Assembly (NCBI GenBank): GCA_016209015.1 | Contig: JACQWY010000002.1 | Span: forward strand, 77,622 to 141,621 | Direction of reading: 5' to 3' | Length of the DNA stretch: 64,000 bases | Source of the DNA: Gammaproteobacteria bacterium | Lineage (GTDB): Bacteria; Pseudomonadota; Gammaproteobacteria; Ga0077536 | Position numbers and translations under genes: made by a program | Notes under the pieces: model-generated | What the model was told of the DNA's origin: nothing | Seen by the model: the letters and a program-made list of their open reading frames with translations, nothing else | The model's database searches: none | Shown here: one piece after another, positions 1,862 to 51,526 of the stretch | How positions within the stretch are numbered: position 1 is the first letter of the stretch | How the letters are laid out: each line of letters begins with the position of its first letter

Positions 1862-3100
1862 TCAGGCGGTCGGCGCCGCCGTCCGTCGCGCCCAGCGTTC
1901 GCGGATGTAGTCCAGGAGCTCCGTCGCGGAGGCAAAGCGGTCCTTGGGGTCTTTCGCCATCGTGCGGTCGATGATCGGTTGCAGCGCCGCGAACTCCTTC
2001 GGCAGCGTCGGCACCGGGTCGTTCGCATGCATGTACAGGAGCGCGATCAGCGAATTCGCCTGATACGGCTTCTCCCCCGTCAGCATCTCGAAGAAGATGG
2101 CGCCCAGGCTGTACAGGTCGCTGCGCGCATCGACCCCGGTCGCCGCGCCCTGCTCCGGGCTCATGTAGTACGGCGTTCCCAGCACCTCGCCCGGCATCGT
2201 CAGCGTCCACGACCACTCGAGCGCCCGCGAGACGCCGAAATCCATCAGCGCGATGCTGCGATCGGCCCGGAACATGATGTTCTGCGGTTTCAGATCACGA
2301 TGCACCACGCCCTGGCGGTGGACGTCCTCGAGCGCGATCGCGAGCTGGTAGAGGAAGCCGAGCGCGCGTTTCGGCGCGAGCGGCTTGCCGAGCAGCGGTT
2401 TCATGTCGCCGCCCGGGAAGTACTCCATCACGATGTACACGCTGTCGTCGGTGAAACCGTGCTCGTAGATGTGGGCGACGTGGTGGCTGTCGATTTTGGA
2501 GTGCAGATTGAATTCCTGCATGAAGCGCTTGAGCTGACCGTCGTCCTCGGTGAGCTCGCCATCGAGGATCTTGATCGCGACGGTCTCGTGCGTGTCCTGC
2601 TTGTCCGCGAGGTAGACCGTCGCCATACCGCCCCGACCAATCCGCTTCAGTACGTGATAGCCCTTGATGCGGACGTCCGCGGCTTCCGCCTCGGTCAGCG
2701 GCGCGAGCGGCTGCGTCAGGTCGAGATCCGAAAGCTCGACGCTCGTCGCGAGCGCTTCGTGCGTCGCGCGGTCCCGCGCCGCGAGCGCTTCCTTCATCGC
2801 TTCGGCGACGCTCTTGCGGTCAATCTGTCTGCTGTCGAGCACGGCCGCGCAGCGTACCCGCGCCACGTCGTCCGGCGCCGCCATACAGACGCCGATGCAG
2901 GCGGGAGTCGGCGGCCGCGGAAACGGCAGCTTCGACCCGAGATCGATGAACGCAACGTCGCAGCCCCGCGTCCCGCCCGCCAGTTCGAGCCAGGCCTGAG
3001 GATCGAACTCATCGACGTCGGCTTCCGGCCAGTCGATCGACAGCAGCTGCGCGAGCATGAGCCGCAGATCTTCATCGGGATGGACGATCGCAATGCGCAT
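1862..3100 (-). CDS. Hanks-type Ser/Thr protein kinase with an N-terminal ~150-aa non-kinase domain (possibly a degenerate receiver-like fold)
   Basis: ORF 1862..3205 on the minus strand. Kinase motifs: GRGGMATVY (P-loop), VAIKIL (catalytic Lys), HRDLKPQNIM, DFGVS, GTPYYMSPE. The probable start is MRIAIV at 3100. An alternative start at 3205 or 3187 cannot be excluded. Confidence 0.7.
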   Translation of the reverse strand: MRIAIVHPDEDLRLMLAQLLSIDWPEADVDEFDPQAWLELAGGTRGCDVAFIDLGSKLPFPRPPTPACIGVCMAAPDDVARVRCAAVLDSRQIDRKSVAEAMKEALAARDRATHEALATSVELSDLDLTQPLAPLTEAEAADVRIKGYHVLKRIGRGGMATVYLADKQDTHETVAIKILDGELTEDDGQLKRFMQEFNLHSKIDSHHVAHIYEHGFTDDSVYIVMEYFPGGDMKPLLGKPLAPKRALGFLYQLAIALEDVHRQGVVHRDLKPQNIMFRADRSIALMDFGVSRALEWSWTLTMPGEVLGTPYYMSPEQGAATGVDARSDLYSLGAIFFEMLTGEKPYQANSLIALLYMHANDPVPTLPKEFAALQPIIDRTMAKDPKDRFASATELLDYIRERWARRTAAPTA

Positions 3101-23572: not shown

Positions 23573-25180
23573 TCACGCCCCGGATGGCGGCCCCGTCAGG
23601 AACCAGTAGCCGTCCTCGTCGCGCGCGGCGCTCGCGCCGTGCCACCACAAGTCCGGACGGCGCGACCAATAGCTCTCGAAATAGCGCGCGGGATCGTTCC
23701 ACAGACCGCGCGTCATGCCGATCGACGAACGCCGCATCACGAGCGTGCCGCGGCCCGCACCGCGGATGCTGGAGCACGCCTCGTCGACGAGGTCGACGCC
23801 GCTGCCCGGTACCGCCGCGCTGAACGCACAAGGCTTCAGGGGATGCAGCAGCGTATCGGTCAATACGCCGCCGCCGAGGTCCGGCGCGCCCGAGCAGCCG
23901 AGGATCGGCACGCGCCGCCGGCACACGTGCTCGAACGTCCAGTGCCAGGCCTCGGGCCTCCAGTCCTCCCCGGCCGCCACGACGAGCCGCAGGGCGCGCA
24001 GGTCGTAGCGTTCGATGCCGTAACCGCCGGCGCGGGTCGCGGCCCAGAGGCTCGCGGGCGAGGCGCCGAGCACCGTGACGTGGTGCTCCTGCAGCAGGCG
24101 CCACAACCGCGCCCCGTCGGGCGCGTGCGGCTCACCCTCGGCGAGGATCAGCGTCGCCCCGAGCAGCGTCGCCGCGACGAGTTGCATGGGACCGGCGAGC
24201 GAGCCCGGATCGCTCATCCACAGCACGCGATCCTCCGTCCGCCAATCGAGACACAGACCGAAATCGAGCGCCATCTTCGTCATGAAGCCGCAATGCGTAT
24301 GCACCGTGCCGCGCAGGCGTGCGCTGTTCGTCGCGGCCGGCGCGTAGTAGACGAGGGCCGGCGTGTCGGCCGGGACGACGCGCGGCATGAAGTCGCGCCG
24401 CGCGGGCTTCCGTACCCGGTGCCACCAGCGGTCACGCATCGAACGCCCGGTTCGCTCGTAGCCGAGATGGCGGACCGTGACGACGCGCTTGAGCGCCGGC
24501 GCCGCGACGAGTGCGGCGGCGAGCGTCGCGCGGAAGTCCTGCGGCACACCGCCGCTGGAGCCGCCGTCGGCCATCAGCATCGCGACGGCGCCGGAGTCGC
24601 GGAGCAGCGCGCCGAGGCGCGCGGCATCGACGTCCGCGGGCACCGGCAGGACGACCGCGCCCACCGCGAGCACGGCGAAGAAGCCGATCGCCCATTCCGG
24701 GATCGCCGGCATGTACAGCGCCACGACTTCGCCGGGCCCGATGCGCAGCGCCTCGAGTCCCGCCGCGACCCGTCCCACTTCGGCGTCGAGCTCGGCATAG
24801 GTGTAGCTGCGCCGACTGCCGTCCTCCCCTTCCCAGACGAGCGCGGGCTTGCGCCACACCGGCGTGTCGCGATGTCGCGTGAGGCAATTGAGCGCGAGAT
24901 TCGTCTCGCCGTCGAGGCACCACACGGTCCACGGCATACCGAACGCGGGCTCGCAGACCTTGGAGTAGGGCCGGGAGAAGCGCAGCCCGAAGTATCCGAT
25001 GCACGCATCCCAGAACCAGCCCGGATCCGCGTCGGCGCGGGCCACGAGCTGCGCATACGCGGCCTCCGGCGCGCCACCGATGCCGAGGGTCCGCATGAAA
25101 TGCGTCAACCGCGCCTGCCGCTTCAGATCGGCGTCGGCGTTCCAGAAGATATCGCTCGCGAATTTCGGGGATTCCAGCAT
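23573..25180 (-). CDS. AMP-dependent synthetase/ligase family protein (acetyl/acetoacetyl-CoA synthetase-like)
   Basis: Start MLESPKFASDIFW at 25180. The complement of ATG was verified, and GGAGG lies upstream. The N-terminal region resembles the ACS N-domain, and the architecture is ANL-superfamily-like. The family was assigned by overall resemblance only. Confidence 0.55.
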   Translation of the reverse strand: MLESPKFASDIFWNADADLKRQARLTHFMRTLGIGGAPEAAYAQLVARADADPGWFWDACIGYFGLRFSRPYSKVCEPAFGMPWTVWCLDGETNLALNCLTRHRDTPVWRKPALVWEGEDGSRRSYTYAELDAEVGRVAAGLEALRIGPGEVVALYMPAIPEWAIGFFAVLAVGAVVLPVPADVDAARLGALLRDSGAVAMLMADGGSSGGVPQDFRATLAAALVAAPALKRVVTVRHLGYERTGRSMRDRWWHRVRKPARRDFMPRVVPADTPALVYYAPAATNSARLRGTVHTHCGFMTKMALDFGLCLDWRTEDRVLWMSDPGSLAGPMQLVAATLLGATLILAEGEPHAPDGARLWRLLQEHHVTVLGASPASLWAATRAGGYGIERYDLRALRLVVAAGEDWRPEAWHWTFEHVCRRRVPILGCSGAPDLGGGVLTDTLLHPLKPCAFSAAVPGSGVDLVDEACSSIRGAGRGTLVMRRSSIGMTRGLWNDPARYFESYWSRRPDLWWHGASAARDEDGYWFLTGPPSGA

Positions 25181-34920: not shown

Positions 34921-36231
34921 ATGGCCGTCACGTTGATGGACGAACACTACGCCCGCCGCACGCGGCCCGACGCGCCGCCGTTCAACTGGCCCGCGGCACC
35001 GCGCACGACGCCCGATGCCCTCGGCGCCGAAGCGCCGCCGAGCACGCTGGAGGCCGAAATGCGCCGGACCGTGCATCAATTCGCGGCACGCGTGATGCGG
35101 CCGATCGGCGTCGCGCTCGATGGGCTCACCGCCGCCGAGGTCATCGCCCCCGGCTCGCCGTACTTCGACTACCGCAGCGAGCTCATGAAGCTCGGCCTCA
35201 CGCCGCGCGCCTTCCTCGAGCTCACGGCCGAGGAACGTGGACGCCTGTTCCCGGTGATCATGGAAGAGTTCGGCTGGGGCGACGCCGGTCTCTCCATCGT
35301 CTACGGCGCGAGCTGCCTACCGCCGCTGATGGCACTCGTCTTCCGGCGCCGGTTCCTGATCGAGCGTTTCCCGGAGACGCTGCGCGGCTGCTGGGCGATC
35401 ACCGAGCCCGATCACGGCAGCGACACGCTCGATCCCGGTGCCGAGGCCTTCCACGCGGCGGGCCGCTACGGAAGACCGAACTGCATCGCCCGGCTCGACG
35501 GCGATCGCGTGATCATCGACGGTCAGAAATCGGCGTGGGTGTCGAACGCGCCGCTCGCCGAAGTGTGCGTGCTCTACTGCGCGGCCGACACCGGCAACGG
35601 CCCCGACGCACGGCACGGCGTCTGCGTGCTCGTACCGCTCGACGCGCCGGGCGTCTCGCGCGGCAAACCGCTCGAGAAGATGGGCCAGCGTCCGCTGCCG
35701 CAGGGCGAGCTCTTCTTCGATCATGTCGAGCTCTCCGCCGATTACGTCGTCGCCGGCCCCGAGGACTATCAGCGCGCACTGCACTTCATCCATTGCGAGG
35801 CGAACAGCCAGATGGCGTGCATCTTCACCGGGGTGGCGCGCGCCGCTTACGAGCTCGCGCATGCCTACGCCCACCAGCGTCGGCAGGGCGGCGTGCCGCT
35901 CGTGCGCCATCAGCGCGTCGCGACGCGGCTCTTCCACATGTACCGGAAGATCGAGGCCTCGCGCGCGCTCGCGAAACGCGTCGCGTATTTCAACAACACC
36001 GCCGCCGTGCCGTCTCTGCCGGCCGCGATGTCCGCGAAGATCACCGGTACGCAGACCGCCTTCGAGGTCGCGAGCGAGGCGCTCCAGATCTTCGGCGGCA
36101 ACGGCCTCACGCGCGAATATCCCGTGGAGAAAATATTTCGCGACGCGCGCGCCGCGCTGATCGAGGACGGTTGCAACGAGCTGCTCGCGATCAAGGGCGG
36201 AATGGGGTTGATCGATCCGGAGCTCTTGTAA
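34921..36231 (+). CDS. Acyl-CoA dehydrogenase family protein
   Basis: ATG at 34921 is in frame within ORF 34786..36231. ACAD middle and C-terminal domain features: WAITEPDHGSD, IFGGNGLTREYPVEKIFRDAR. Confidence 0.7.
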   Translation: MAVTLMDEHYARRTRPDAPPFNWPAAPRTTPDALGAEAPPSTLEAEMRRTVHQFAARVMRPIGVALDGLTAAEVIAPGSPYFDYRSELMKLGLTPRAFLELTAEERGRLFPVIMEEFGWGDAGLSIVYGASCLPPLMALVFRRRFLIERFPETLRGCWAITEPDHGSDTLDPGAEAFHAAGRYGRPNCIARLDGDRVIIDGQKSAWVSNAPLAEVCVLYCAADTGNGPDARHGVCVLVPLDAPGVSRGKPLEKMGQRPLPQGELFFDHVELSADYVVAGPEDYQRALHFIHCEANSQMACIFTGVARAAYELAHAYAHQRRQGGVPLVRHQRVATRLFHMYRKIEASRALAKRVAYFNNTAAVPSLPAAMSAKITGTQTAFEVASEALQIFGGNGLTREYPVEKIFRDARAALIEDGCNELLAIKGGMGLIDPELL

Positions 36232-36335
36232 GCCTCACAGGCAAATTGCCCGGCGCGACCGGGCGATTCGCCCTTGTCCCGCTGCCGGTGCGCGCGCCAC
36301 ACTCGCCGCCCCACTATCGATGCAAGGAGCTCACG

Positions 36336-36731
36336 ATGATCGGGATCTGGAGTGCGCACGCGCAGGTCTTCCTGCTCGTGCTGTGTGTCGCGACCTCGGC
36401 ATGTTTCGCCCTGCCGCTGTTCTTCGTGCCGATCGCCTGGGCGAGAATCTTCCGCTGGACGATCCCCGCCGAGACCGATCTCGCCGTCTACTTCGGCCGC
36501 TGCCTCGGCGCGTTCGTGTTGATCGTCGAGGCGCTCATGCTGCGCGCCGGCCTGACCGGCACCGGTCTCGAATTCACGTTCCAGGTGCTGCTCGCCGTCG
36601 CGGGGATGATGGTGATCGTGCACGTCTGGGGCTACGTCAAACGCATCCAGCCGTTCACCGAGACGCTCGAAATCGGCATGTACTCCGGGATGGGGATCCT
36701 CTGCGCGTTGTTCTATCCGGGGCTGTCGTAG
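36336..36731 (+). CDS. Hypothetical small membrane protein (~131 aa, 3-4 predicted TM helices)
   Basis: ATG at 36336 is preceded by AAGGAG. The sequence is hydrophobic (VFLLVLCVATSACFALPLFFVPIAWARIF...). It sits in the C-terminal part of ORF 35535..36731. Confidence 0.45.
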   Translation: MIGIWSAHAQVFLLVLCVATSACFALPLFFVPIAWARIFRWTIPAETDLAVYFGRCLGAFVLIVEALMLRAGLTGTGLEFTFQVLLAVAGMMVIVHVWGYVKRIQPFTETLEIGMYSGMGILCALFYPGLS

Positions 36732-36737
36732 AGGTCT

Positions 36738-36765
36738 GGAAAGGGGGTCAGGTTCGATATCCCGG
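36738..36765. repeat. Solo half-copy of the GGGAAATGGGGTCAGGTTCGAATTCGCGG repeat family (left arm only)
   Basis: GGAAAGGGGGTCAGGTTCGATATCCCGG matches about 24 of 29 positions of the left arm of the maeB-flanking repeats. No partner arm is nearby. Confidence 0.3.
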
Positions 36766-36831
36766 ATGACACCGGTCGGATCGGCACCGTGACCGTCGGA
36801 GACATCGAGCCTGCCCCGTCTCCCGAAGCGC

Positions 36832-37674
36832 CTACCCCTGATCCAGCGCCCCCGCGACGCACTCCACGAACGCCTCCTCCGAGCTGACGCTACCGAGCAC
36901 GTCCGCGCCGATCGTGTAGCCGTGATCGCGGGCGATCGCCTCGTAGCGCGGGATGCGCGCCTGGAAGAGGCGCGGGAACATCCAGAGCACGAACTCGTCG
37001 GGCACGATGTCCTCGATGCGCGCGATGCCGCGCTCTTTCCGGAACACGGCGAGCTCGGCGTCGAGGAAGGGCTCGCGGTAGTAGAGCGGCTTCGGATCGA
37101 GCTCGGCGCGGCGCATGAGCTCGCGGCCGTACTCCGGCGTCGCTTCGATATAGACGATGAGCGTGTCGCGGGCGAGCACGTCGAGCACGTCGGGATCGTC
37201 GAGCTCGCAGAGGCTGCCTGCCGAGTCGTTCACGAAATGGCGGTAGCCGTAGATCTCGTGCGCCTTCGTGATGAACGCCGGCACGTCGAGCATCGCCGCG
37301 ACCTCGGCATCGCGATAGAGCTTCTGCCGGCGCTTGAACTCGAGGAGCGCGAGCCCGCCGAGCGACGGCATGCCGAGCTTGCCGAGGAAGGTGAGCACGG
37401 CGGTGAGGTTGTCGACGGTGATGTTGTTCGAGATGTAGATGGAATCTGCACGCAGCAGCTCGCGCAGGAACGGCACCTGCATCGCCTGGCGCTTGATGTT
37501 GTCGAGGATCGGCTCGTTGAGATAACGCGTGCCGATGCGGTAATCCGCGGAGTAGTGGAACCAGTGCGCGTGGCGCAGACAGGTCGAGAGGTGCGTCTTG
37601 CCCACGCCCGACATGCCGAGCAGAGTCACCGATTTCCGATCCCAGCGCCGGAATTCTGAAGCCGTCATTCGCAT
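36832..37674 (-). CDS. Uncharacterized P-loop NTPase (Walker A GMSGVGKT)
   Basis: ORF track. Walker A is near the N-terminus (VTLLGMSGVGKTHLS). I recognise no other family signature. It lies between two acyl-CoA dehydrogenase genes. Confidence 0.45.
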   Translation of the reverse strand: MRMTASEFRRWDRKSVTLLGMSGVGKTHLSTCLRHAHWFHYSADYRIGTRYLNEPILDNIKRQAMQVPFLRELLRADSIYISNNITVDNLTAVLTFLGKLGMPSLGGLALLEFKRRQKLYRDAEVAAMLDVPAFITKAHEIYGYRHFVNDSAGSLCELDDPDVLDVLARDTLIVYIEATPEYGRELMRRAELDPKPLYYREPFLDAELAVFRKERGIARIEDIVPDEFVLWMFPRLFQARIPRYEAIARDHGYTIGADVLGSVSSEEAFVECVAGALDQG

Positions 37675-37705
37675 GCGCGCATGCTACCAAGCGAAAGCAA
37701 GTTAT

Positions 37706-37775
37706 CAACAGGGGTCGGAGGGACTTTCTCGTTCTCGCACGCTAAAGCAAAAGTCCCTCCGACCCCTGTGGATAA
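37706..37775. repeat. Long near-perfect inverted repeat (27-bp arms, ~22-nt spacer) between two minus-strand genes
   Basis: GTTATCAACAGGGGTCGGAGGGACTTT ... AAAGTCCCTCCGACCCCTGTGGATAAG. There is one mismatch in 27 bp. Confidence 0.5.
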
Positions 37776-37801: not shown

Positions 37802-38950
37802 TCAGTCGCCGGCGACGAGTGTGCGGCCGATGATCTCCTTCATGATTTCGGACGAGCCGCCGGCGATGCGCGAGACGCGGTTGTCGGCCCAGGCGCGCGT
37901 GATCGGATATTCCCACATGTAGCCGTAGCCGCCGTGCATCTGCACGCAGTCGTCGAGCACCCGCCAGAGCGATTCCGTCGCGTGCAGCTTCGCCATCGCG
38001 GCATCGACCGCGTCGAGCGCGCCTTCGAGATGGCGCAGGAGACAGGCATCGATGAACGTCCGGGTGACTGTCGTGAGCGTCTTCAGCTCCGCGAGCTTGA
38101 AGCGCGTGTTCTGAAAGCCCGCGAGCGTGCGGCCGAACGCCTCGCGCTCGTTCACGTAGCGCACCGTCCACTCGAGCGCCGCCTCCATCACCGCCGTCGA
38201 GCGCAGCGCGACGACGAGCCGTTCCTGCGGGAGCTGTTCGATGAGCTGAACGAAGCCGCGCCCCTCGACACCGAGCAGATTCGTCACCGGCACGCGGCAG
38301 TCGTTGAAGAAGAGCTCCGAATTGTCCTGGGCATGGAAGCCCGCCTTCTGCAGCCTGCGGCCGCGCTCGAAGCCCGGGCGGTCGCGTTCGACGAGGAGCA
38401 GGCTGATTCCTTTCGCGCCGAGCGCCGGGTCCGTCTTGCAGGCGAGGATGATCAGATCCGCGAGCCCGCCGTTCGAGATGAACGTCTTCTGACCGTTCAC
38501 GACGTAGTCCGCGTCCTCGCGCCGCGCATGCGTCTTGATCGCCTGCAGATCGGAACCCGCCGACGGCTCGGTCATCGCGATCGCGGTGATCGTCTCGCCG
38601 GTGCAGAGCTTCGGCAGCCAGGTGTGCTTCTGCGCCTCCGTGCCGTAGTGCACGAGATAGGGTGCGACGATTTCCGAATGCAGATGGAACGACGCGCCGG
38701 CATAACCCGCGCGGCCGAACTCTTCGACGACGATCGCGCCGAAGCGGAAATCCGCGCCCGCGCCGCCGTATTCCTCCGGCACGCACGGACAGAGGATGCC
38801 GGCCTCGCCCGCGGCGAGATAGACCTCGCGGCTCACCGAGCCCGCCTTCTCCCACGCCGCGTAATGCGGCGCGACCTCCTTGTCGATGAAGCGGCGGACG
38901 GTGTCGCGGAACGCTTCGTGCTCCGGCTCGAAGAGGGTTCTCGGGATCAT
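37802..38950 (-). CDS. Acyl-CoA dehydrogenase
   Basis: 382 aa. Classical ACAD motifs: AIAMTEPSAGSD, GQKTFISNGGLAD, MHGGYGYMWEYPITRAWADNRVSRIAGGSSEIMKEIIGR. Confidence 0.8.
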   Translation of the reverse strand: MIPRTLFEPEHEAFRDTVRRFIDKEVAPHYAAWEKAGSVSREVYLAAGEAGILCPCVPEEYGGAGADFRFGAIVVEEFGRAGYAGASFHLHSEIVAPYLVHYGTEAQKHTWLPKLCTGETITAIAMTEPSAGSDLQAIKTHARREDADYVVNGQKTFISNGGLADLIILACKTDPALGAKGISLLLVERDRPGFERGRRLQKAGFHAQDNSELFFNDCRVPVTNLLGVEGRGFVQLIEQLPQERLVVALRSTAVMEAALEWTVRYVNEREAFGRTLAGFQNTRFKLAELKTLTTVTRTFIDACLLRHLEGALDAVDAAMAKLHATESLWRVLDDCVQMHGGYGYMWEYPITRAWADNRVSRIAGGSSEIMKEIIGRTLVAGD

Positions 38951-39029
38951 GCAGGGCTCACTCGCGGACGTGGAAGGACACGCGGGATCCTAGCGGCGGC
39001 GGCGGCGCCCGCCATGATCCGGATCCGGA

Positions 39030-42405: not shown

Positions 42406-43356
42406 TCACGGCTGCGGCGAGATGCCCTTCAGATATTTGAAGATGTCGCTGTCCGTCGAGAGGATCAGCGTCGTGTTCTTCGCGATCGCGTCGCGGTAGA
42501 TCTCCATGCTGCGCGTGAACTCGTAGAAGCGCACGGCCTCCGGGCTCTGGTTGTAGGCCTTCGCATAGATCTCCGTCGCCCTCGCGTCCGCCGCGCCGCG
42601 GATCTCCTGCACCTGGCGATACGCTTCCGATCGGATCTTGTTCAGATCGCGCTCGCGGTTGCCGCGGATGCGCGCCGCTTCGCCGTTGCCCTCGGAGCGG
42701 AAACGCTCGGCGATCTGCCGGCGCTCGCTGATCATGCGATCGTAGATCTTCGGCTGCACGCTGCGGTTGTAGTTGATGCGCTTGAAGCGGATGTCGAGCA
42801 GCTCGATGCCGAAGACCTTCACCTTCTCCGCCGCCGCCGCGTAGATCTCCTCCTCGACGGCCTTGCGGCCCTTGCGGATCGGCACGAGCGTGGCATTCGC
42901 CTCGCCGAGCGAGGCATCCTTGAGCGGCGCGCGATCCTTCGTCGTGCGGACGATTTCGATCAGTGCGTGCTTCGCGATGGCGTTGCGCGTCTCGCTGCCG
43001 AGGATGTCGTCGAGCCGCGACTGCGCGCTGCGCTCGTCGTGCAGCCGCAAGTAGTACTGCAGCGGATCGGTGATGCGCCAGCGGCCGTAGAGATCGACGG
43101 TGATGTAGAGCTTGTCCTCGGTCGGCATGTCGGAGGGGCTGCCGTCCCATTCCAGGATGCGCTTCTCGATGCGGTTGACCTCCTGCACGAACGGCGTCTT
43201 GAGCTTGAGTCCCGCGGTCGTCACGGGCTTCACGACAGGCTTGCCGAACTGCGTGATGATGACCTGCTCGAGCTCGTTGACGGTGTAGATGGAGTCGTAA
43301 GCGGCGAACAGCGCGAAGGCGAGCGCGAGGTAGCCGAGAATCTTCACGAGGCTCAT
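42406..43356 (-). CDS. hflC: Protease modulator HflC (SPFH/band-7)
   Basis: Start MSLVKILGYLALAFALFAAY from residue arithmetic. The SPFH domain is present. The start ATGA overlaps the hflK stop. Confidence 0.8.
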   Translation of the reverse strand: MSLVKILGYLALAFALFAAYDSIYTVNELEQVIITQFGKPVVKPVTTAGLKLKTPFVQEVNRIEKRILEWDGSPSDMPTEDKLYITVDLYGRWRITDPLQYYLRLHDERSAQSRLDDILGSETRNAIAKHALIEIVRTTKDRAPLKDASLGEANATLVPIRKGRKAVEEEIYAAAAEKVKVFGIELLDIRFKRINYNRSVQPKIYDRMISERRQIAERFRSEGNGEAARIRGNRERDLNKIRSEAYRQVQEIRGAADARATEIYAKAYNQSPEAVRFYEFTRSMEIYRDAIAKNTTLILSTDSDIFKYLKGISPQP

Positions 43357-44378
43357 TGCTGCTCCTCCTGGACGGGCGCCTGCGGCGCCGCCGGGATCTC
43401 GGCCGCGGCGGCGGCCGCGCTCTCCGGCGTGCTGTTGTCGAGATGGAGCAGCGGCAACATGCGCTGCGTCTTCTCGTCGACGACGATCTTCGAGCGGATC
43501 TCCGGCAACACCTGCTGCAGCGTCTCGAGATAGAGCCGGCGCTTCGTCACGTCCGGCGCCTTGAGGTATTCCGCGAGCACGGCGTCGAAACGCGCGGCGT
43601 CGCCCTCCGCCTCGTTCACGCGCTTGAGGCGGTAGCCCTCCGCCTCCTGGATGCGCTGATCCTTCTCGCCCTCGGCGAGCGGCACGACCTTGTTGTAGGC
43701 CTGGCGCGCCTCGTTGATGAGCTTCTCCTTCTCCTGCTGTGCCTGGTTCACCTCGTTGAACGAAGCCTGCACCGGCACGGGCGGATTGATGTTCTTCAAC
43801 TGCACCTGGTCGATGCTGATGCCGAGCTCGTATTTCTTCGCGAGTGCCTGCATGCGCGCGAGCGCCTCGATCTCGATTTCCTGGCGGCCGATCGTGATGA
43901 CCTCGTCCACCGTGCGATCGCCGACGACCTCGCGCATCGCGGATTCGGAGACGTCGCGCAGCGCCATCGAGGGTTCGCGGGCCTTGAACAGGAACGTCGT
44001 CGGATCGGCGATGCGGTACTGCACGACCCACTCGACGAGCGCCGCATTGAGATCGCCCGTCACCATCTGCGTCTCCTTCGCGGCGTCCTGCGCGACCTGG
44101 TAGGGATTCGTCGCGCCCGGGGTACCGAAACCGAACTCCTGTTTCAACTGGCGCTTCACGGGCAGCTTCGTCGCGATGTCCATGCCGAGCGGCAGCTTGA
44201 AGTGCAGGCCCGGCTCGACGACTTTCAGAAACCGGCCGAAGCGCTGCACGACCGCGACGGAATCGCCGGGCACGGTGTAATACGTCGACATCACCGCGAG
44301 CAGAGCGAGCAGCAGCGGCAAGGCGAGCCGCAATACGCGATCGCGCAGCGCAGTCACCCGATCGAGATCGATCACCAT
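43353..44378 (-). CDS. hflK: Protease modulator HflK (SPFH/band-7)
   Basis: Start MVIDLDRVTAL at 44378. The complement of ATG was verified, and GGAGG lies upstream. The SPFH domain and an Ala/Gln-rich C-terminus are present. Confidence 0.8.
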   Translation of the reverse strand: MVIDLDRVTALRDRVLRLALPLLLALLAVMSTYYTVPGDSVAVVQRFGRFLKVVEPGLHFKLPLGMDIATKLPVKRQLKQEFGFGTPGATNPYQVAQDAAKETQMVTGDLNAALVEWVVQYRIADPTTFLFKAREPSMALRDVSESAMREVVGDRTVDEVITIGRQEIEIEALARMQALAKKYELGISIDQVQLKNINPPVPVQASFNEVNQAQQEKEKLINEARQAYNKVVPLAEGEKDQRIQEAEGYRLKRVNEAEGDAARFDAVLAEYLKAPDVTKRRLYLETLQQVLPEIRSKIVVDEKTQRMLPLLHLDNSTPESAAAAAAEIPAAPQAPVQEEQQ

Positions 44379-44440
44379 TCGAGCCTCCCCAACTTTTCCG
44401 TGTCCGGGGCCGAGCATACGCTGGCCACCTGCGGATTAGT

Positions 44441-44613
44441 AGGTTGCCATGAAAGAGCGGCGGCGCCGGCGGGAAATGGGGTCAGGTTCGAATTCGCGGG
44501 GGAGCGCCCGGGTACGCGCCATTACGTTCGCCGCGAAATCGAACCTGACCCCAATTCCCTCTACGCGTCTTTCATAATTGCGGGCGCTGCTGCACAAACT
44601 TCATGACTGTTGG
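44441..44613. repeat. MITE/REP-like palindromic repeat, copy 1 (family with 21-bp arms GGGGTCAGGTTCGAATTCGCG / CGCGAAATCGAACCTGACCCC)
   Basis: Read directly. It is about 170 bp and about 90% identical to copy 2 at 47114..47284. Terminal inverted arms flank a ~35-nt spacer. Confidence 0.6.
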
Positions 44614-44748
44614 GCTGACGCAGGAAGCCCAACACCCGAAGTTTCATCGAGCGACAGCGACCCGCCCGGAGCTTGCAGGATCCTGCCGTCGACGAAGCAG
44701 TTGCACGCCGCAGTGTTGGGCTTCCTGCGTCAGCCCCACCTGCGCCAT
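44609..44748. repeat. Pair of 28-bp inverted repeats (GTTGGGCTGACGCAGGAAGCCCAACAC / revcomp) spaced ~85 bp apart, in the maeB 5' region
   Basis: Read directly. This is a second structured element adjoining repeat copy 1, immediately upstream of the maeB start at 44818. Confidence 0.4.
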
Positions 44749-44817
44749 CCCTGCGCTTGCCTCTCCCCCGCATCGGATGCATCGTAAGCGCCCCACCCGA
44801 TCCACGGTAGATGCCAG

Positions 44818-47103
44818 ATGACGAATCCGTTCCTCGAAGCCGCGCTCGATTACCACCGCAAGCCCGTCCCGGGCAAGATTTCCGTCACACCGACGAAGGC
44901 GCTCCTGAACCAGCGCGACCTCTCGCTCGCCTACTCGCCCGGCGTCGCCGCGGCCTGCGAGGCGATCGTGCGCGACTCGGGCGAAGTCTCGGCGCTGACC
45001 GCGCGCGGCAATCTCGTCGGCGTGGTGACGAACGGCACGGCGGTGCTCGGCCTCGGGCCGATCGGCCCGCTCGCCGCGAAGCCCGTGATGGAAGGCAAAG
45101 CCGTGCTGTTCAAGAAGTTCGCCGGCATCGACGTCTTCGACATCGAATTGAACGAAACGGATCCCGATCGCCTCGTCGACGTCATCGCCGCGCTCGAGCC
45201 GACGTTCGGTGGCATCAACCTCGAGGACATCAAGGCGCCGGACTGCTTCTACGTCGAGCGCAAGCTGCGCGAGCGTCTCAAGATCCCGGTCTTCCACGAC
45301 GACCAGCACGGCACGGCGATCATCACGAGCGCGGCGGTGACGAACGGCCTGCGCGTCGTCGGCAAGAAATTGAACGAAGTGAAGCTCGTCTGCAGCGGCG
45401 CGGGCGCGGCGGCGCTCGCCTGCCTCGATCTGCTCGTTCACCTCGGCCTCGACATGAAGAACGTCTGGGTCTACGACAAGTTCGGCGTCGTCTATACCGG
45501 GCGCCGCGAGGAGATGGACGAGAACAAGGTGCGCTACGCGAAGGACACGGACAAACGCACGTTGACGGACATCATTCCGGACGCGGACATCTTCCTCGGA
45601 CTCTCGGCCGGCAATGTGCTGAAGCCCGAGATGGTGAAGCTCATGGCCGCCCGCCCGCTCATCCTCGCGCTCGCGAACCCGACGCCCGAGATCCTGCCCG
45701 AGCTCGCGAAGGAGGCGCGCCCGGATTGCATCGTCGCGACCGGCCGCTCGGACTATCCGAACCAGGTCAACAACGTGCTGTGCTTCCCGTTCATGTTCCG
45801 CGGTGCGCTCGACGTCGGCGCGACGACCATCACCCGCGAGATGGAGCTCGCCGCAGTGCAGGCAATAGCCGAGCTCGCGTACGCCGAGCAGAGCGAGGTC
45901 GTGGCCGCGGCGTACGGTGATCAGGTGCAGCCGTTCGGGCCCGAGTACCTCATCCCCAAGCCTTTCGATCCGCGCCTCATCGTGAAGATCGCGCCGGCCG
46001 TCGCGCGCGCCGCGATGATCTCCGGCGTCGCGACGCGCCCCATACCCGATTTCGGGGCCTACGAAGAGCAGCTCAAGGTCTTCGTCTATCACTCGGGGCT
46101 GCTGATGAAGCCCGTCTTCGCGGCCGCGAAGGCGAACCGCAAGCGCATCGTGTTCGCCGAGGGCGAGGACGAGCGCATCCTGCGCGCGACGCAGGTCGTC
46201 GTCGACGAGGGTCTCGCGCAACCGATCCTCGTCGGCCGGCCGGACGTCGTCGAGGCGCGCATCAGACAATACGGCTTGCGCATCCGCCCGGACGTCGACT
46301 TCGAGCTCGTCAATCCGAACAGCGACGCGCGCTACAAGGACTACTGGCAGAGCTACTACGCGCTCACCGAACGCATGGGCGTGACGGCGGAATACGCAAA
46401 GATCGAAATGCGGCGGCGCTTGACGCTCATCGGCGCGATGCTCGTCCGCAAGGGTGATGCCGATGGCCTCGTCTGCGGCACGCTGGGCACGCACGCCCAG
46501 CATCTGCGCTACATCGATCGCGCCATCGGCCGCCTGCCCGGCACGTCGATCTACGCGGCGATGAACGGGCTGCTCCTGCCGAATCAGACGGTGTTCGTCT
46601 GCGACACGTACGTGAACTACGATCCGACCGCGGAAGAGCTCTGCGAGATGACGATCCTCGCCGCGGAGATGGTGAAACGCTTCGGCTTGATGCCCAAGAT
46701 CGCGCTCGTCTCGCATTCGAGCTTCGGCACCTACGACACGCCGAGCGCGAAGAAGATGCAGCGCGCGACGAAGCTCCTCTGGGAGCACGCGCCCGAGCTC
46801 GAGGTCGAAGGCGAGATGCACGGCGACGCCGCGCTCTCGGAGGAAGTGCGCCTCGCCGTCTTCCCGCGGGCGAAGCTGAAAGGCGCGGCGAATCTGCTCA
46901 TCATGCCCTCGCTCGACGCCGCGAACATCGGCTTCAATCTGCTGAAGCAGGCAGCCGGTGAAGGTCTGACGATAGGCCCGATCCTGCTCGGCGCCGCGAA
47001 GCCGGTGAACATCCTCACGCCGACGGCGACGGTCCGCCGCATCGTGAATCTCACGGCGCTGACGGCGGTGGAGAGTGCGCTCGAGGCGAATGGGGCGGCG
47101 TAG
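44818..47103 (+). CDS. maeB: NADP-dependent malic enzyme (malate dehydrogenase, decarboxylating) with C-terminal phosphotransacetylase-like domain
   Basis: 761 aa. Malic enzyme motifs: [31 protein letters not shown](P)-binding VCSGAGAAA. The C-terminal ~330 aa are a PTA-like domain. Confidence 0.9.
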
Positions 47104-47113
47104 TAGAGGCGTG

Positions 47114-47284
47114 GGTTGCCGTGAAAGAAGTGCGGTGCGGACGGGAAATGGGGTCAGGTTCGAATTCGCGGGCGAGCGCCCGGGTACGGGTCACCGCGTC
47201 GGCCGCGAAATCGAACCTGACCCCAATTCCCTCTACGCGTCTTTCATGATTGCGGGCGCCGCACGAACTGCATGACCGTGGGGC
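47114..47284. repeat. MITE/REP-like palindromic repeat, copy 2 (same family as 44441..44613)
   Basis: GGGAAATGGGGTCAGGTTCGAATTCGCGGGCGAGCGCCCGGGTACGG...GCCGCGAAATCGAACCTGACCCCAATTCCCTCTACGCGTCTTTCATGATTGCGGGCGC. It lies immediately downstream of the maeB stop. Confidence 0.6.
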
Positions 47285-47481
47285 TTCCTTCGTCGGCCCC
47301 AAACCTACCGTCCTCCCACGCCCCGTGCTACGCTCGCAGCGCGTGCCGGACGCACGCAAGACCGCTGCTCTCGAGGTGCGAACGGGACACGGCGCTGCAT
47401 GGTCCATTGCTTCCCTCGCGATCAGCCGGCCCGCCGCCGCACGGCGGCTTCACCACGTTCCGAGCCAGCGAGGGGAAAGCC

Positions 47482-48444
47482 ATGACAACGACGCCCGGCC
47501 ATGCCATCCACCGCCATCACCACATCACGCTCTGCACCGGCGGCGCGCAGGAGGACTTCGATTTCCACACGAAAGTCCTGGGTCTGAAAATCGTCAAGCG
47601 CACGCTGCTCTACGACGGGCAGGTGCCGATTTATCACTTCTACTACGGCAACGACAACGGCAACGAGAGCACGCTCGTCACGAGCTTTCCGATGCGCCAC
47701 ACGGGACGCAAGGCGCGCAAGGGCTCGGGGCAGATCGGCTCGGTCTCGCTCTCGATCCCCGAAGGCGCGCTCGACTACTGGACGGCGCGGCTCACGGAAT
47801 CGGGCTTCGAGACGCGCTACTCGGAACGCTTCGGTGAATCGCAGCTCGAGTTCCAGCATCCCTGCGGCATCGACTACCGCCTCGTCGCGACGAAGGACGA
47901 CGCGCGCACGCCGCACACGAAAGGCCCGGTGCCCGCCGAGCACATGATCCGCGGCACGCATGCCATCACGGTCTCGGTGCGCGACATGGACATGATGGAC
48001 GAGTTCATGGAGCTCGGCTGGGGCGGCACGCGGGTCGCCGCCGACAGCGAGGGCGTGCGCTACCAGATCGGCGCGGGCGGCTCCGGCCGCTACGTCGATT
48101 TCGTCGTCGAGCCGAACGTCAAGCAGGGGAGCTGGTCGCTCGGCGAAGGCTTCATCCACCACATGGCGTTCGAGGTCGACACGCACGAACAGCAGAACGC
48201 GATCAAGGCGACGCTCGAAGCGCTCGGCTTCACGGACACCTCCGATGTGAAGAATCGCGGCTACTTCGATTCGATTTACGTGCGCACGCCGGGCGGCGCG
48301 CTGTTCGAGGCGACGGTCTCGCACCAGCCCTCGTTCGCCTGCGACGAGCCCGCGGATCGCATCGGCCACGACGTGATCGTCTCGCCGCAGTTCAAGCAGG
48401 ATCTGCCGGGCTTGATCGCGCAGCTCGGCGCGATTCAGGACTGA
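47482..48444 (+). CDS. VOC-family (glyoxalase/ring-cleaving dioxygenase-like) two-domain protein
   Basis: ATG at 47482 is preceded by AGGGGAAAG and is in frame within ORF 47272..48444. HHITLCTGGAQEDFDFHTKVLGLKIVKR and a second half HHMAFEVDTHEQQNAIKATLEALGF give two tandem VOC modules. Size 320 aa. Confidence 0.6.
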   Translation: MTTTPGHAIHRHHHITLCTGGAQEDFDFHTKVLGLKIVKRTLLYDGQVPIYHFYYGNDNGNESTLVTSFPMRHTGRKARKGSGQIGSVSLSIPEGALDYWTARLTESGFETRYSERFGESQLEFQHPCGIDYRLVATKDDARTPHTKGPVPAEHMIRGTHAITVSVRDMDMMDEFMELGWGGTRVAADSEGVRYQIGAGGSGRYVDFVVEPNVKQGSWSLGEGFIHHMAFEVDTHEQQNAIKATLEALGFTDTSDVKNRGYFDSIYVRTPGGALFEATVSHQPSFACDEPADRIGHDVIVSPQFKQDLPGLIAQLGAIQD

Positions 48445-50320: not shown

Positions 50321-51526
50321 CTAACAGGCGGAGGCCGATGCGAGGAACGCGAGCAGGAGCCGCGTCACCTCGACAGCCTGCTCCTGCTGCACCCAGTGGC
50401 CGGCGCCGTCGACGAAATGACAGCCGAGCATGCGCGTGAACGTCTGCTCGCGCATGCGCTCGATCGCGCCGGGCACCTGATAGTGACCCCAATCGTGCCG
50501 CCCGGAGATGAAGCACGCGGGCCGATCGATCGTCCGCCCTGCGAACACTTCGAGCTCCGCGCGATAGCGATCGGTGAAGTTCGCGCGATACCAGTTCAGG
50601 CCGCCCTGGAAGCCCGTGCGCGAGAACTCCGCCGCGTAGACGGCGAGCTCGGCCTCGGTCAACCATTTGCATTTCGCGATCGCCGCCGCATCCGGCATGA
50701 ACGGCGCACAATCCTCCGGCATCGTCCGATCGCGGTTCATCACGTAGTAGGTCGGCAGCTTCGCGAGCTCCACGGCGCTCCAGGACGCGAGCGGCTGCGG
50801 CTCGTTGCCCGGCCAGTCTGCGCTCTTGTAGTGGTAGTAGGCGCGGAGGAACGCGTGCACGAAGGAATTGGGGTCAGGATCCATCAGCCCCGCGCTAATG
50901 GATCCTGACCCCATTGCGCTGCCGCGCATGTCGGTCGCCGCTTCGCGCGTCGCGTAGTAGCGCCAGTAGTGCTTGCGCGGTGGTTCGAGCGCGGCGAGAG
51001 CGGCGTGGATGTCTGGTTCGGATTTCCGTTCCTCGCCGTCGGTGATCGCGGGCGCGCCGGTGAACGGCGCGCTCATCACGACGACGGCTTCGAAGACGTC
51101 CGGACGCAGCAGCGCGCACCAGCCCGCGACGAACGTGCCGAAGTCGTGCCCCATGACGCACGCGACGTTCGGGATGCCGAGCACGTGCAGCAGGCCCAGC
51201 ACGTCGCGCACGAGATTCAGGATCCGGAACGGCGCGAGATCGCCGTCGTAGTCGGCGTTCCAGCCCGTGGTGCGGCCGTAGCCGCGCTGGTCGGGCGCAA
51301 TCACGTGATAGCCCGCGGCGGCGAGCGCAGGCATGAGCTTGCGCCAGCTATAGGCGAGCTCGGGAAAGCCGTGCAGCAGGAGCAGGCAGGGGCGGCCCGG
51401 CGTTTCGAAGCCGGCGTCGAGGACGTGCAGGTCGAGGCCGTTCACGCCGGGGACGAGGCGGGAGCGAATGACGGGATCGAGCGTCGGGGTCTTCAGCGGA
51501 TCGATGGTGGCGGCCTCCGCGGGCAT
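50321..51526 (-). CDS. Alpha/beta-hydrolase (epoxide-hydrolase-like) carrying an in-frame 54-bp palindromic-repeat insertion
   Basis: 401 aa. HGFPELAYSWR, nucleophile elbow GHDFG, and the distal His region are typical of epoxide hydrolases. The segment MGSGSISAGLMDPDPNS is encoded by the repeat at 50865..50918. Confidence 0.75.
   Translation of the reverse strand: MPAEAATIDPLKTPTLDPVIRSRLVPGVNGLDLHVLDAGFETPGRPCLLLLHGFPELAYSWRKLMPALAAAGYHVIAPDQRGYGRTTGWNADYDGDLAPFRILNLVRDVLGLLHVLGIPNVACVMGHDFGTFVAGWCALLRPDVFEAVVVMSAPFTGAPAITDGEERKSEPDIHAALAALEPPRKHYWRYYATREAATDMRGSAMGSGSISAGLMDPDPNSFVHAFLRAYYHYKSADWPGNEPQPLASWSAVELAKLPTYYVMNRDRTMPEDCAPFMPDAAAIAKCKWLTEAELAVYAAEFSRTGFQGGLNWYRANFTDRYRAELEVFAGRTIDRPACFISGRHDWGHYQVPGAIERMREQTFTRMLGCHFVDGAGHWVQQEQAVEVTRLLLAFLASASAC
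50865..50918. repeat. Short variant of the GGGGTCAGG palindromic repeat family embedded in-frame within the hydrolase coding sequence
   Basis: GGAATTGGGGTCAGGATCCAT-N13-ATGGATCCTGACCCCATT. The terminal ~16 bp of each arm match the maeB-flanking repeats. Length is 54 bp, or 18 codons. Confidence 0.45.

Follow-up and report, generated by a model that had tools for sequence, protein, structure and literature searches.

REP-Dimer-Like Palindromic Elements Flank maeB in a Gammaproteobacterial Genome and Share a 14-bp Core With Hairpins in Other Bacteria

We analyzed a 64,000-nucleotide stretch of a gammaproteobacterial genome (contig JACQWY010000002.1 of assembly GCA_016209015.1, positions 77,622 to 141,621; hereafter the window), in which maeB, a malic enzyme gene, lies between two copies of a repeat unit of about 175 nt. 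Each unit contains a long hairpin that belongs to a dispersed family with a 14-bp core (GGGGTCAGGTTCGA/TCGAACCTGACCCC). On balance, the maeB repeats are probably non-coding, non-autonomous palindromic elements of the repetitive extragenic palindromic (REP)-dimer type, known as REPINs, a reading that we hold with some reserve. The hairpin family is new, while the kind of element (REP dimer, or REPIN-like) is already known, and the broad distribution of the family is its one feature worth follow-up.

A Pair of Palindromic Repeat Units Brackets maeB

The repeat pair was recovered both by a repeat search of the window and by BLASTN, in agreement with a first-pass annotation of the same DNA that had placed two palindromic copies around maeB. 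The gene and the repeat features are as follows.

44818..47103, plus strand: maeB, NADP-dependent malic enzyme, 761 aa (Pfam malic, Malic_M, and PTA_PTB)
44439..44616, plus strand: copy 1 of the ~175-nt unit, a direct repeat with copy 2 at 86-88% identity
47111..47285, plus strand: copy 2 of the ~175-nt unit, beginning 8 nt past the maeB stop
44471..44559, no strand assigned: family hairpin of copy 1, core 44478-44491 / 44539-44552, loop 31 nt; outer stem GGGAAAT/AATTCCC, inner stem ATTCGCGG/CCGCGAAA
47143..47231, no strand assigned: family hairpin of copy 2, core 47150-47163 / 47211-47224

The repeat search aligned 44439-44590 with 47111-47262 as an ungapped direct repeat of 88% identity, and BLASTN aligned 44439-44616 with 47111-47285 over 178 columns at 86% (E 1e-55), somewhat below the roughly 90% first estimated; identical stretches of 31 nt and 46 nt are common to both copies. 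The inverted arms of 21 nt (44478-44498/44532-44552 in copy 1 and 47150-47170/47204-47224 in copy 2), of which 100 shuffles produced no occurrence, are exactly those written in the first-pass annotation. They are not terminal, as had been supposed, and instead occupy the middle of a stem of 29-33 bp. The full stem arms measure 29 nt in copy 1 (44471-44499/44531-44559, 93% complementary) and 33 nt in copy 2 (47143-47175/47199-47231, 91% complementary), with a conserved A.A mismatch in the outer stem GGGAAAT/AATTCCC of both. The repeated peptides in the open reading frame (ORF) track, already suspected to be spurious, are translations of the palindrome; a search with these translations against a collection of 5.8 billion proteins, aimed at spurious ORFs over other copies, gave no matches.

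Folding, which had been proposed as a check, yielded stabilities far beyond chance: the whole units reached z-scores of −5.6 and −6.4 as RNA against shuffles, and as single-stranded DNA (ssDNA) the hairpins reached −36.6 kcal/mol (z −6.0) in copy 1 and −47.9 kcal/mol (z −11.3) in copy 2. Beyond the stem, the copies share a further ~32 nt leftward and ~57 nt rightward. This outer ~85 nt of the unit is common to copies 1 and 2 alone. When both units were compared by BLASTN with all fetched loci, matches were confined to window positions 44462-44569, and exact matching of the right flank specific to the window, CTGACCCCAATTCCCTCTACGCG, against the metagenome collection gave none; the 175-nt version was therefore not found outside the source organism. 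Each copy is most closely related to the other, also in flanks that are not part of the family and in an adjoining second hairpin described below; the pair therefore arose by local duplication or local copying.

A Palindromic Insertion in a Coding Sequence and Other Hairpins of the Window

Three further hairpins in the window have a GGGGTC...GACCCC base, and two of them share the start of the core, GGGGTCAGG. With the maeB pair, five hairpins with this base lie within 14 kb of the window. None of the three was assigned a strand.

50869..50913: short member of the family, GGGGTCAGGATCCAT...ATGGATCCTGACCCC, lying in frame within an epoxide-hydrolase-like gene
36728..36834: decayed copy of the family, GGGGTCAGGTTCGATATCCCGG... 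/ ...CATCGAGCCTGCCCC, flanked by convergent genes; folds weakly (z −0.3)
37702..37775: related long hairpin with a different stem (GGGGTCGGAGGGACTTT), 3' of the gene at 37802-38989 (minus strand); z −9.3

The short member forms part of a 48-nt in-frame palindromic insertion in an epoxide-hydrolase-like (alpha/beta-hydrolase) gene (50321-51526, minus strand), where it adds 16 residues (SGSISAGLMDPDPNSF) to the variable cap region of the protein. These residues are absent from all seven aligned homologs, two of which are 86-87% identical, and the empty site is seen in the DNA of these two (loci L065 and L066) as ...CGCAAGGG|ATCCACGCG.... Judging from this alignment, the insertion is direct evidence that such elements insert. 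It carries the same AAT...AATTCC flanks as copies 1 and 2. A target-site duplication, which the first-pass annotation had suggested looking for, was not visible in this one filled/empty comparison, where ~15% divergence blurs the junctions; its absence fits an element of the REP type rather than a MITE (miniature inverted-repeat transposable element).

Inverted GTAG tags mark both ends of the three longer window copies. Those of the maeB pair are listed here.

44439..44442, plus strand: GTAG left of copy 1; inverted partner CTAC at 44561-44564, 1 nt from the stem base
47100..47106, plus strand: GTAGTAG left of copy 2, holding the maeB stop TAG at 47101-47103; inverted partner CTAC at 47233-47236

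In the decayed copy at 36728-36834, the left GTAG (36728-36731) contains the TAG stop of the ORF at 35535..36731, and the right CTAC (36831-36834) overlaps the stop of the minus-strand gene, as read from the sequence. Of 102 flanks across the family, 12 have GTAG within 30 nt and 3 have its reverse complement, a comparison that TAG stops partly confound.

The related hairpin at 37702-37775 has 26-nt arms (TTATCAACAGGGGTCGGAGGGACTTT / AAAGTCCCTCCGACCCCTGTGGATAA) that are 96% complementary. Its base, GGGGTCGGA, resembles GGGTCGGACC, a motif that flanks a Y1 transposase gene at locus L042.

A 14-bp Core Recurs in Distant Hosts

We searched species-representative genomes with the pattern GGGGTCAGGTTCGA-N(30-60)-TCGAACCTGACCCC and metagenome contigs with a similar pattern. 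Matches were obtained at 27 genome loci and in 33 metagenome contigs, the latter mostly high in G+C, giving 60 loci with unrelated flanks. The first-pass annotation had proposed a MITE- or REP-like palindromic kind of element and had raised the question of whether copies exist beyond the two sites. They do, at the level of the hairpin, both in the window and at these other loci, and the dispersed family together with the in-frame insertion bears out the proposed kind.

According to record titles, the hosts include several Burkholderiales metagenome-assembled genomes (MAGs), one of them with eight loci, the isolates Nitrosospira sp. Nl5 and Pelomonas parva, and further Roseateles, Rhodanobacteraceae (three MAGs), Alteromonadaceae (a 698-kb contig with 47% G+C), and Arenicellales. 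By MAG label only, the hosts extend to Planctomycetota (two MAGs) and to Gemmatimonadaceae of the Gemmatimonadota (one MAG, two contigs). The Gemmatimonadaceae contigs encode outer-membrane barrel proteins of the CarboxypepD_reg type and a duplicated MacB/FtsX permease, a gene content that we take to fit the label. A single Streptomycetaceae bin holds a copy that resembles the Burkholderiales type and may be mis-binned. Carriers span 47-70% G+C, and the outer stem, inner stem, and loop are specific to each host group, which argues against contamination. No core was found in viral contigs or in the 72,556 plasmids of PLSDB. A full-text literature search for the core and its sub-strings found the motif in no paper and returned unrelated primers and sequences only. 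The family is currently unflagged by annotation pipelines and by Rfam, which at gathering thresholds gave no match in the window.

It is possible, if doubtful, that one REPIN-like family with a T-arm-like 14-bp core (GGTTCGAA) is common to Beta- and Gammaproteobacteria and, provided that the MAG labels are correct, to Planctomycetota and Gemmatimonadota. If this were true, a REPIN and its transposase would have spread horizontally across phyla, or the core would be read by a factor common to all hosts, counter to the current view that REPINs are passengers bound to a lineage and inherited vertically. For the majority of hosts, the element would then be a portable two-way terminator that settles on, and often supplies, stop codons. 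Such a family would suit two questions, namely what recognizes REP-like hairpins and how they reach stop codons.

The Stem Is Conserved as a Structure

Pairing was analyzed in 52 unique elements at outer positions 1-7 and inner positions 1-7, all of which lie outside the search pattern. These positions pair in 58-98% of elements, against 31-98% with shuffled partners, and at 11 of the 14 the observed pairing was unmatched by any shuffle. Variable stem positions show up to four Watson-Crick pair types each. From position 8, pairing falls to background on both sides, so that the stem comprises 7+14+7 bp with sharp ends.

Changes within the core were examined in copies that lie near a match and were not selected by the pattern. 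Eight compensated pairs were found, two each in L012:914, L022:5615, L061:1305, and window 50870; the only uncompensated changes were three, all G.T, in L012:2515 and L012:4196. Loop sequences are unrelated between subfamilies, and within one they are homologous and drifting: the loops of the 64-nt copies of the Burkholderiales type align to a loose consensus once these copies are oriented by an internal (G)GGTCAG. We had considered whether the loops are captured target DNA, and this alignment after orienting the elements ruled it out. Among the Rhodanobacteraceae, an element occupies one orthologous site in three MAGs; full comparison of one pair gave identities of 75-83% for the flanks, 81-93% for the arms, and 44% for the loop.

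Three elements have nested or partly duplicated ends (L032:270-413, L046:4172-4254, and L051:3033-3122, the last equivalent to L060). Each bears an extra GGGGTCAGGTTC outside a complete element, and L032 also an extra GAACCTGACCCC. These ends look as if they arose by insertion at the TTC|GAA center of a minimal palindrome or by slippage. Joined without a loop, the core reads GGGG-TCAGG-TTCGAA-CCTGA-CCCC, a sequence reminiscent of the T-arm of a tRNA, with TTCGAA as the loop between the two stem strands, stacked on a short stem like that of the acceptor. A tRNA scan did not call the elements as tRNA.

A Proposed REPIN-Type Origin

If the elements are of REPIN type, the working module would be a hairpin of ~90 nt with 7 variable paired outer bp, a near-fixed 14-bp core, 7 variable paired inner bp, and an unconstrained loop. 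It would be copied to new sites as an ssDNA hairpin by an HUH/Y1 tyrosine transposase acting in trans and resembling a REP-associated tyrosine transposase (RAYT), a route expected to leave no target duplication. Copies would be long-lived because the stem stays intact. Most family members would land on, or be retained at, gene ends, where A-rich and T-rich flanks would give them the form of two-way terminators and the outer stem would often supply the stop codon. The maeB pair would be a local duplicate of one lineage-specific version with extra flanks, GTAG tags, a neighboring second REP type, and a lost T-tract, and the bracketing of maeB would be a by-product of local copying. We found no evidence that the family is tied specifically to maeB, or that the repeats have mobilized this gene or regulate it.

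In known REPINs, the spacer varies yet folds, A/T flanks have been read as terminator co-option, and long palindromic singlets occur (PMC3337134). The GTAG termini of REPs donate TAG stops, and REPs are also found inside ORFs (PMC3733652). The present elements are like the RAYT-mobilized REPINs of Pseudomonas fluorescens SBW25 and relatives (PMC3116915, PMC3337134) in their size of ~80-100 nt, two inverted conserved arms, free spacer, conserved flanking A and T runs, long palindromic short derivatives, and persistence at orthologous sites. They differ from these in that each arm by itself is only partly palindromic, that no RAYT flanked by the hairpin was found, and that a single 14-bp core spans several orders, and probably phyla, while published REPIN families have been described as lineage-specific. 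With GTAG-tagged REPs (Di Nocera et al. 2013, PMC3733652; E. coli REPs and bacterial interspersed mosaic elements (BIMEs), PMC3333891), the window copies share inverted GTAG tags at both ends, a tag that supplies the TAG stop of maeB and of one other gene, and one copy in frame within an ORF, and like BIMEs they form a mosaic with a second REP type; unlike those REPs, most members of the wider family are untagged and have a TGAAAAAT-like outer stem, and the left tag of two among the three tagged window copies stands 33-44 nt from the stem and is not adjacent to it. The elements also resemble Correia/NEMIS, ERIC, and other bacterial MITEs in being small, non-coding, dispersed near genes, foldable, and sometimes terminators or located in ORFs, but in those MITEs the terminal inverted repeats are conserved and the target is duplicated (TA for Correia), whereas the present elements have variable ends and a conserved block in mid-stem and showed no duplication. 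The TRIT hairpins of Mycobacterium tuberculosis, reportedly described by Gardner and colleagues in 2011, are said to be terminator-like hairpins with a conserved stem at gene ends and to be restricted to the genus.

Two loci outside the window are leads for a RAYT, the partner whose presence, flanked by the repeats, defines a REPIN; both are suggestive only. L042 encodes an intact 265-aa Y1 transposase (2264-3061; Pfam Y1_Tnp, 2e-8) at 6.5 kb from a hairpin. In L012, from Nitrosospira sp. Nl5, region 1-281 holds a RAYT-like N-terminal remnant of 62 residues (bases ~75-260) that breaks off just short of the HUH motif. Bases 1-19 of this locus correspond to the inner arm of the hairpin type found there, and the remnant lies ~60 nt downstream of this half element. 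Four full hairpins follow within 5 kb after the remnant, between small and unrelated genes for DUF4385, NUDIX, polyketide cyclase, glyoxalase, and DUF5131 proteins. A literature search for RAYTs with Nitrosomonas found nothing. Group 1 RAYTs occur in 21 bacterial classes and show signs of horizontal transfer (PMC5581495), and such a wide range, we infer, would suit so widespread a hairpin family. Inverted 11-mers (GGGTCGGACCA / TGGTCCGACCC) lie at 2146 and 3071 of L042, with GTAGA just upstream of each on the plus strand; by sequence, they look like the Y1 gene's own REP pair.

Several observations weigh against a REPIN-type origin. No RAYT or other transposase or integrase was detected in the 64-kb window when six-frame ORFs were searched by phmmer with E. 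coli RayT and IS608 TnpA and with the L042 protein, and a Pfam scan of selected ORFs in gaps between called genes found no transposase in the window either. The L042 protein scored 67 bits against the NCBIfam model REP_Tyr_transpos (REP-associated tyrosine transposase), below its 80-bit cut-off, and the motifs on either side of its gene are inverted copies of GGGTCGGACC and not the family hairpin. The L012 remnant gives a weak match (E 0.0025 locally and 0.089 against NCBIfam), and the locus ends at the critical spot. A core common to several orders, and probably phyla, fits poorly with REPINs and RAYTs described as mostly lineage-restricted and vertically inherited, and its invariance across the 60 loci is imposed in part by the exact-match search. 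Classical REP units are palindromes in themselves, and these arms are so only in part; among the 64-nt Burkholderiales copies, the internal (G)GGTCAG allows one arm to fold on itself as GGGGTCAG-N10-CTGACCCC, on one side only and in some copies, which do not include the window copies. Most family members lack the GTAG tag. Copy 1 lies between divergent genes, an unusual place for REPs. Finally, the window has 5 hairpins in its 64 kb and L012 has 4-5 in 8 kb (Nitrosospira sp. Nl5, four hairpins within 8 kb), densities that are local figures and not copy numbers per genome.

Placement at Gene Ends and a Possible Terminator Role

The elements might instead be two-way intrinsic terminators, or stabilizers of mRNA 3' ends, that are selected by the host and spread by recombination, with copy 2 terminating maeB. 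We consider this unlikely as the whole explanation, and a terminator role is compatible with the REPIN reading as a secondary, co-opted one. The family consensus TGAAAAAT-[GC-rich stem]-ATTTTTCA is shaped like a two-way intrinsic terminator. Roughly half of the elements have a frame of at least 100 codons ending no more than 12 nt from the core; for random positions in these loci the figure is 6.5%. The outer stem often contains the stop codon. The orthologous site kept in the three Rhodanobacteraceae MAGs, which in the pair compared in full lies between convergent genes, and the start of copy 2 at 8 nt past the maeB stop speak for the same role. Most other family members end in a tail of ATTTTT(C) and so have the stem and T-rich tract of an intrinsic terminator; loops of this length are beyond the scoring of the terminator scan.

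The window copies fit this explanation less well. They end in CCCC-AATTCCCTC, with no T-tract, and with this tail (AATTCCCTCTACGCG) the two maeB copies do not qualify as intrinsic terminators. Copy 1 lies upstream of both neighboring genes, which are divergent, and one copy is located within a coding sequence. By context, 26 elements were classed as tandem, 4 as convergent, and 10 as divergent, counts that rest on crude gene calls and are indicative. When elements were oriented with the upstream gene, mismatches at variable stem positions comprised 12 of the G.U type and 12 of the A.C type, so that there was no strand-specific excess of G.U on the transcribed strand, and orientation relative to the upstream gene was not biased (6 sense, 5 antisense). 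The lack of both signals suggests a constraint that is that of a DNA hairpin, or is symmetric. A terminator origin would also leave unexplained the core common to distant bacteria and the insertion in an ORF.

Classical MITEs and Other Explanations

Less likely again is a classical MITE, in which the arms would be terminal inverted repeats bound as double-stranded DNA by the DDE transposase of a full-length insertion sequence located elsewhere and moved by cut-and-paste. Inverted arms, small size, dispersed copies in both orientations, and the nested or duplicated ends in L032, L046, and L051 are what such an element could show. However, the conserved 14 bp lie in mid-stem, while the true ends, the outer 7 bp, vary yet stay complementary, and core changes are compensated on the other arm, which indicates that a hairpin is kept and not a protein-binding site. 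The one available empty site showed no target duplication, the fetched loci contained no longer or parent element with the same arms, and the core was absent from the plasmids and viral contigs searched.

That maeB came to this locus in a composite mobile unit or recombination cassette, with the repeats as its ends, is highly improbable. Direct repeats of ~200 bp do flank a single gene, and maeB neighborhoods differ among the three closest relatives, so that synteny is not decisive on whether maeB has moved. Against this, the repeats (175-200 nt) are non-coding beyond the palindrome translations, no transposase or integrase was found among the window ORFs, and the codon composition of maeB is host-like (GC3, the G+C at third codon positions, 0.91), with a base composition matching its neighbors. 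These three findings also count against the earlier suggestion that maeB had been mobilized. The closest maeB relatives belong to the same broad group: the nearest, at 82-83% identity, are on metagenome contigs, and labeled relatives at 72-77% are Burkholderiales and Rhodocyclales. In addition, similar hairpins adjoin unrelated genes 8 kb upstream and 4 kb downstream.

A role of the units as structured regulatory RNAs, whether as a leader of maeB or as small RNA genes, is comparably improbable: as RNA they are predicted to fold very stably, with copy 1 upstream of the gene, but they match no Rfam family, no promoter-like (sigma-70-like) site was found in 43300-48000 (weakly informative at 68% G+C), the same hairpin stands beside many unrelated genes in either orientation, no strand-specific G.U signal was seen, and the maeB genes of relatives have no hairpin, the core being absent from the maeB-flanking spacers of three relatives (the closest at 82-83%). 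Rfam hits around copy 1 ranked by E-value were weak matches to microRNA hairpin models only, and we rejected them as chance-level.

The maeB Region, a Second Hairpin Type, and an Independent Assembly

Upstream of maeB lies a Band_7/SPFH gene (Pfam) on the minus strand, whose start at 44378 was read from its ribosome-binding site. We had considered it as a conserved RlmM neighbor and ruled this out, since length alone coincides. The divergent spacer between this gene and maeB is 439 bp, of which copy 1 and a doublet of a second hairpin type occupy ~300 bp. The next gene 3' of maeB starts at ~47484 (ribosome-binding site and ATG), and the gene call of another assembly maps to ~47480. In the three relatives, the maeB spacers are too diverged and the neighbors too different for empty-site boundaries to be drawn. 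Two of these spacers hold other palindromic families, of CCCCTTCCCCCTTTCAGGGGGAAGG and GTCATTGCGAGGAGCGAAGCGACGAAGCAATC types (L062:11830-12000 and L064:12280-12380), and maeB-flanking spacers seem to be general landing sites for palindromic elements. Elsewhere in the window, ARAGORN called a tRNA-Ala(CGC) of 92 nt (23703-23794, minus strand; anticodon position 31), probably a false positive because it lies inside a composition-called gene of 669 codons.

The first-pass annotation had also noted a second inverted pair after copy 1. The pair exists, with arms of 27 nt and not 28, and belongs to a different hairpin family.

44609..44739, no strand assigned: REP-like hairpin doublet of a second type, GTTGGGCT GACGCAGGA AGCCCAAC
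47278..47301, no strand assigned: hairpin of the second type, single copy, loop inverted relative to 44609-44635

The arms of the doublet (44609-44635/44713-44739) are 96% complementary and 77 nt apart, its units are inverted in a REPIN-like arrangement, and it folds as ssDNA with a z-score of −6.4. The single hairpin follows copy 2 at the same distance from the 175-nt unit as the doublet follows copy 1. Since the second type accompanies both copies, the duplicated block is ~200 nt long and a mosaic of two repeat types.

Deletion or amplification of maeB is the main foreseeable consequence of two direct repeats of 200 bp; the identical stretches of 31 and 46 nt are, we infer, enough for occasional recombination of this kind. 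The repeats also explain the odd peptides in the ORF track, the 300 bp of palindromes before maeB, and a probable assembly break. The source genome is a MAG with 68% G+C, and in an independent assembly of the same organism (GCA_016218315.1), in which maeB is 100% identical, the contig terminates 14 nt outside the core of copy 1, an end that we attribute to the effect of the repeat on the assembler. The two assemblies differ by a few substitutions and, inside the repeat units, by two 3-nt indels, one at the maeB stop (GTAGTAG at window 47100-47106 against GTAG at L028:2634-2640) and one at window 44583-44600 against L028:107-130 (GCGCTGCTGCAC against GCGCTGCAC). The repeat units differ from strain to strain.

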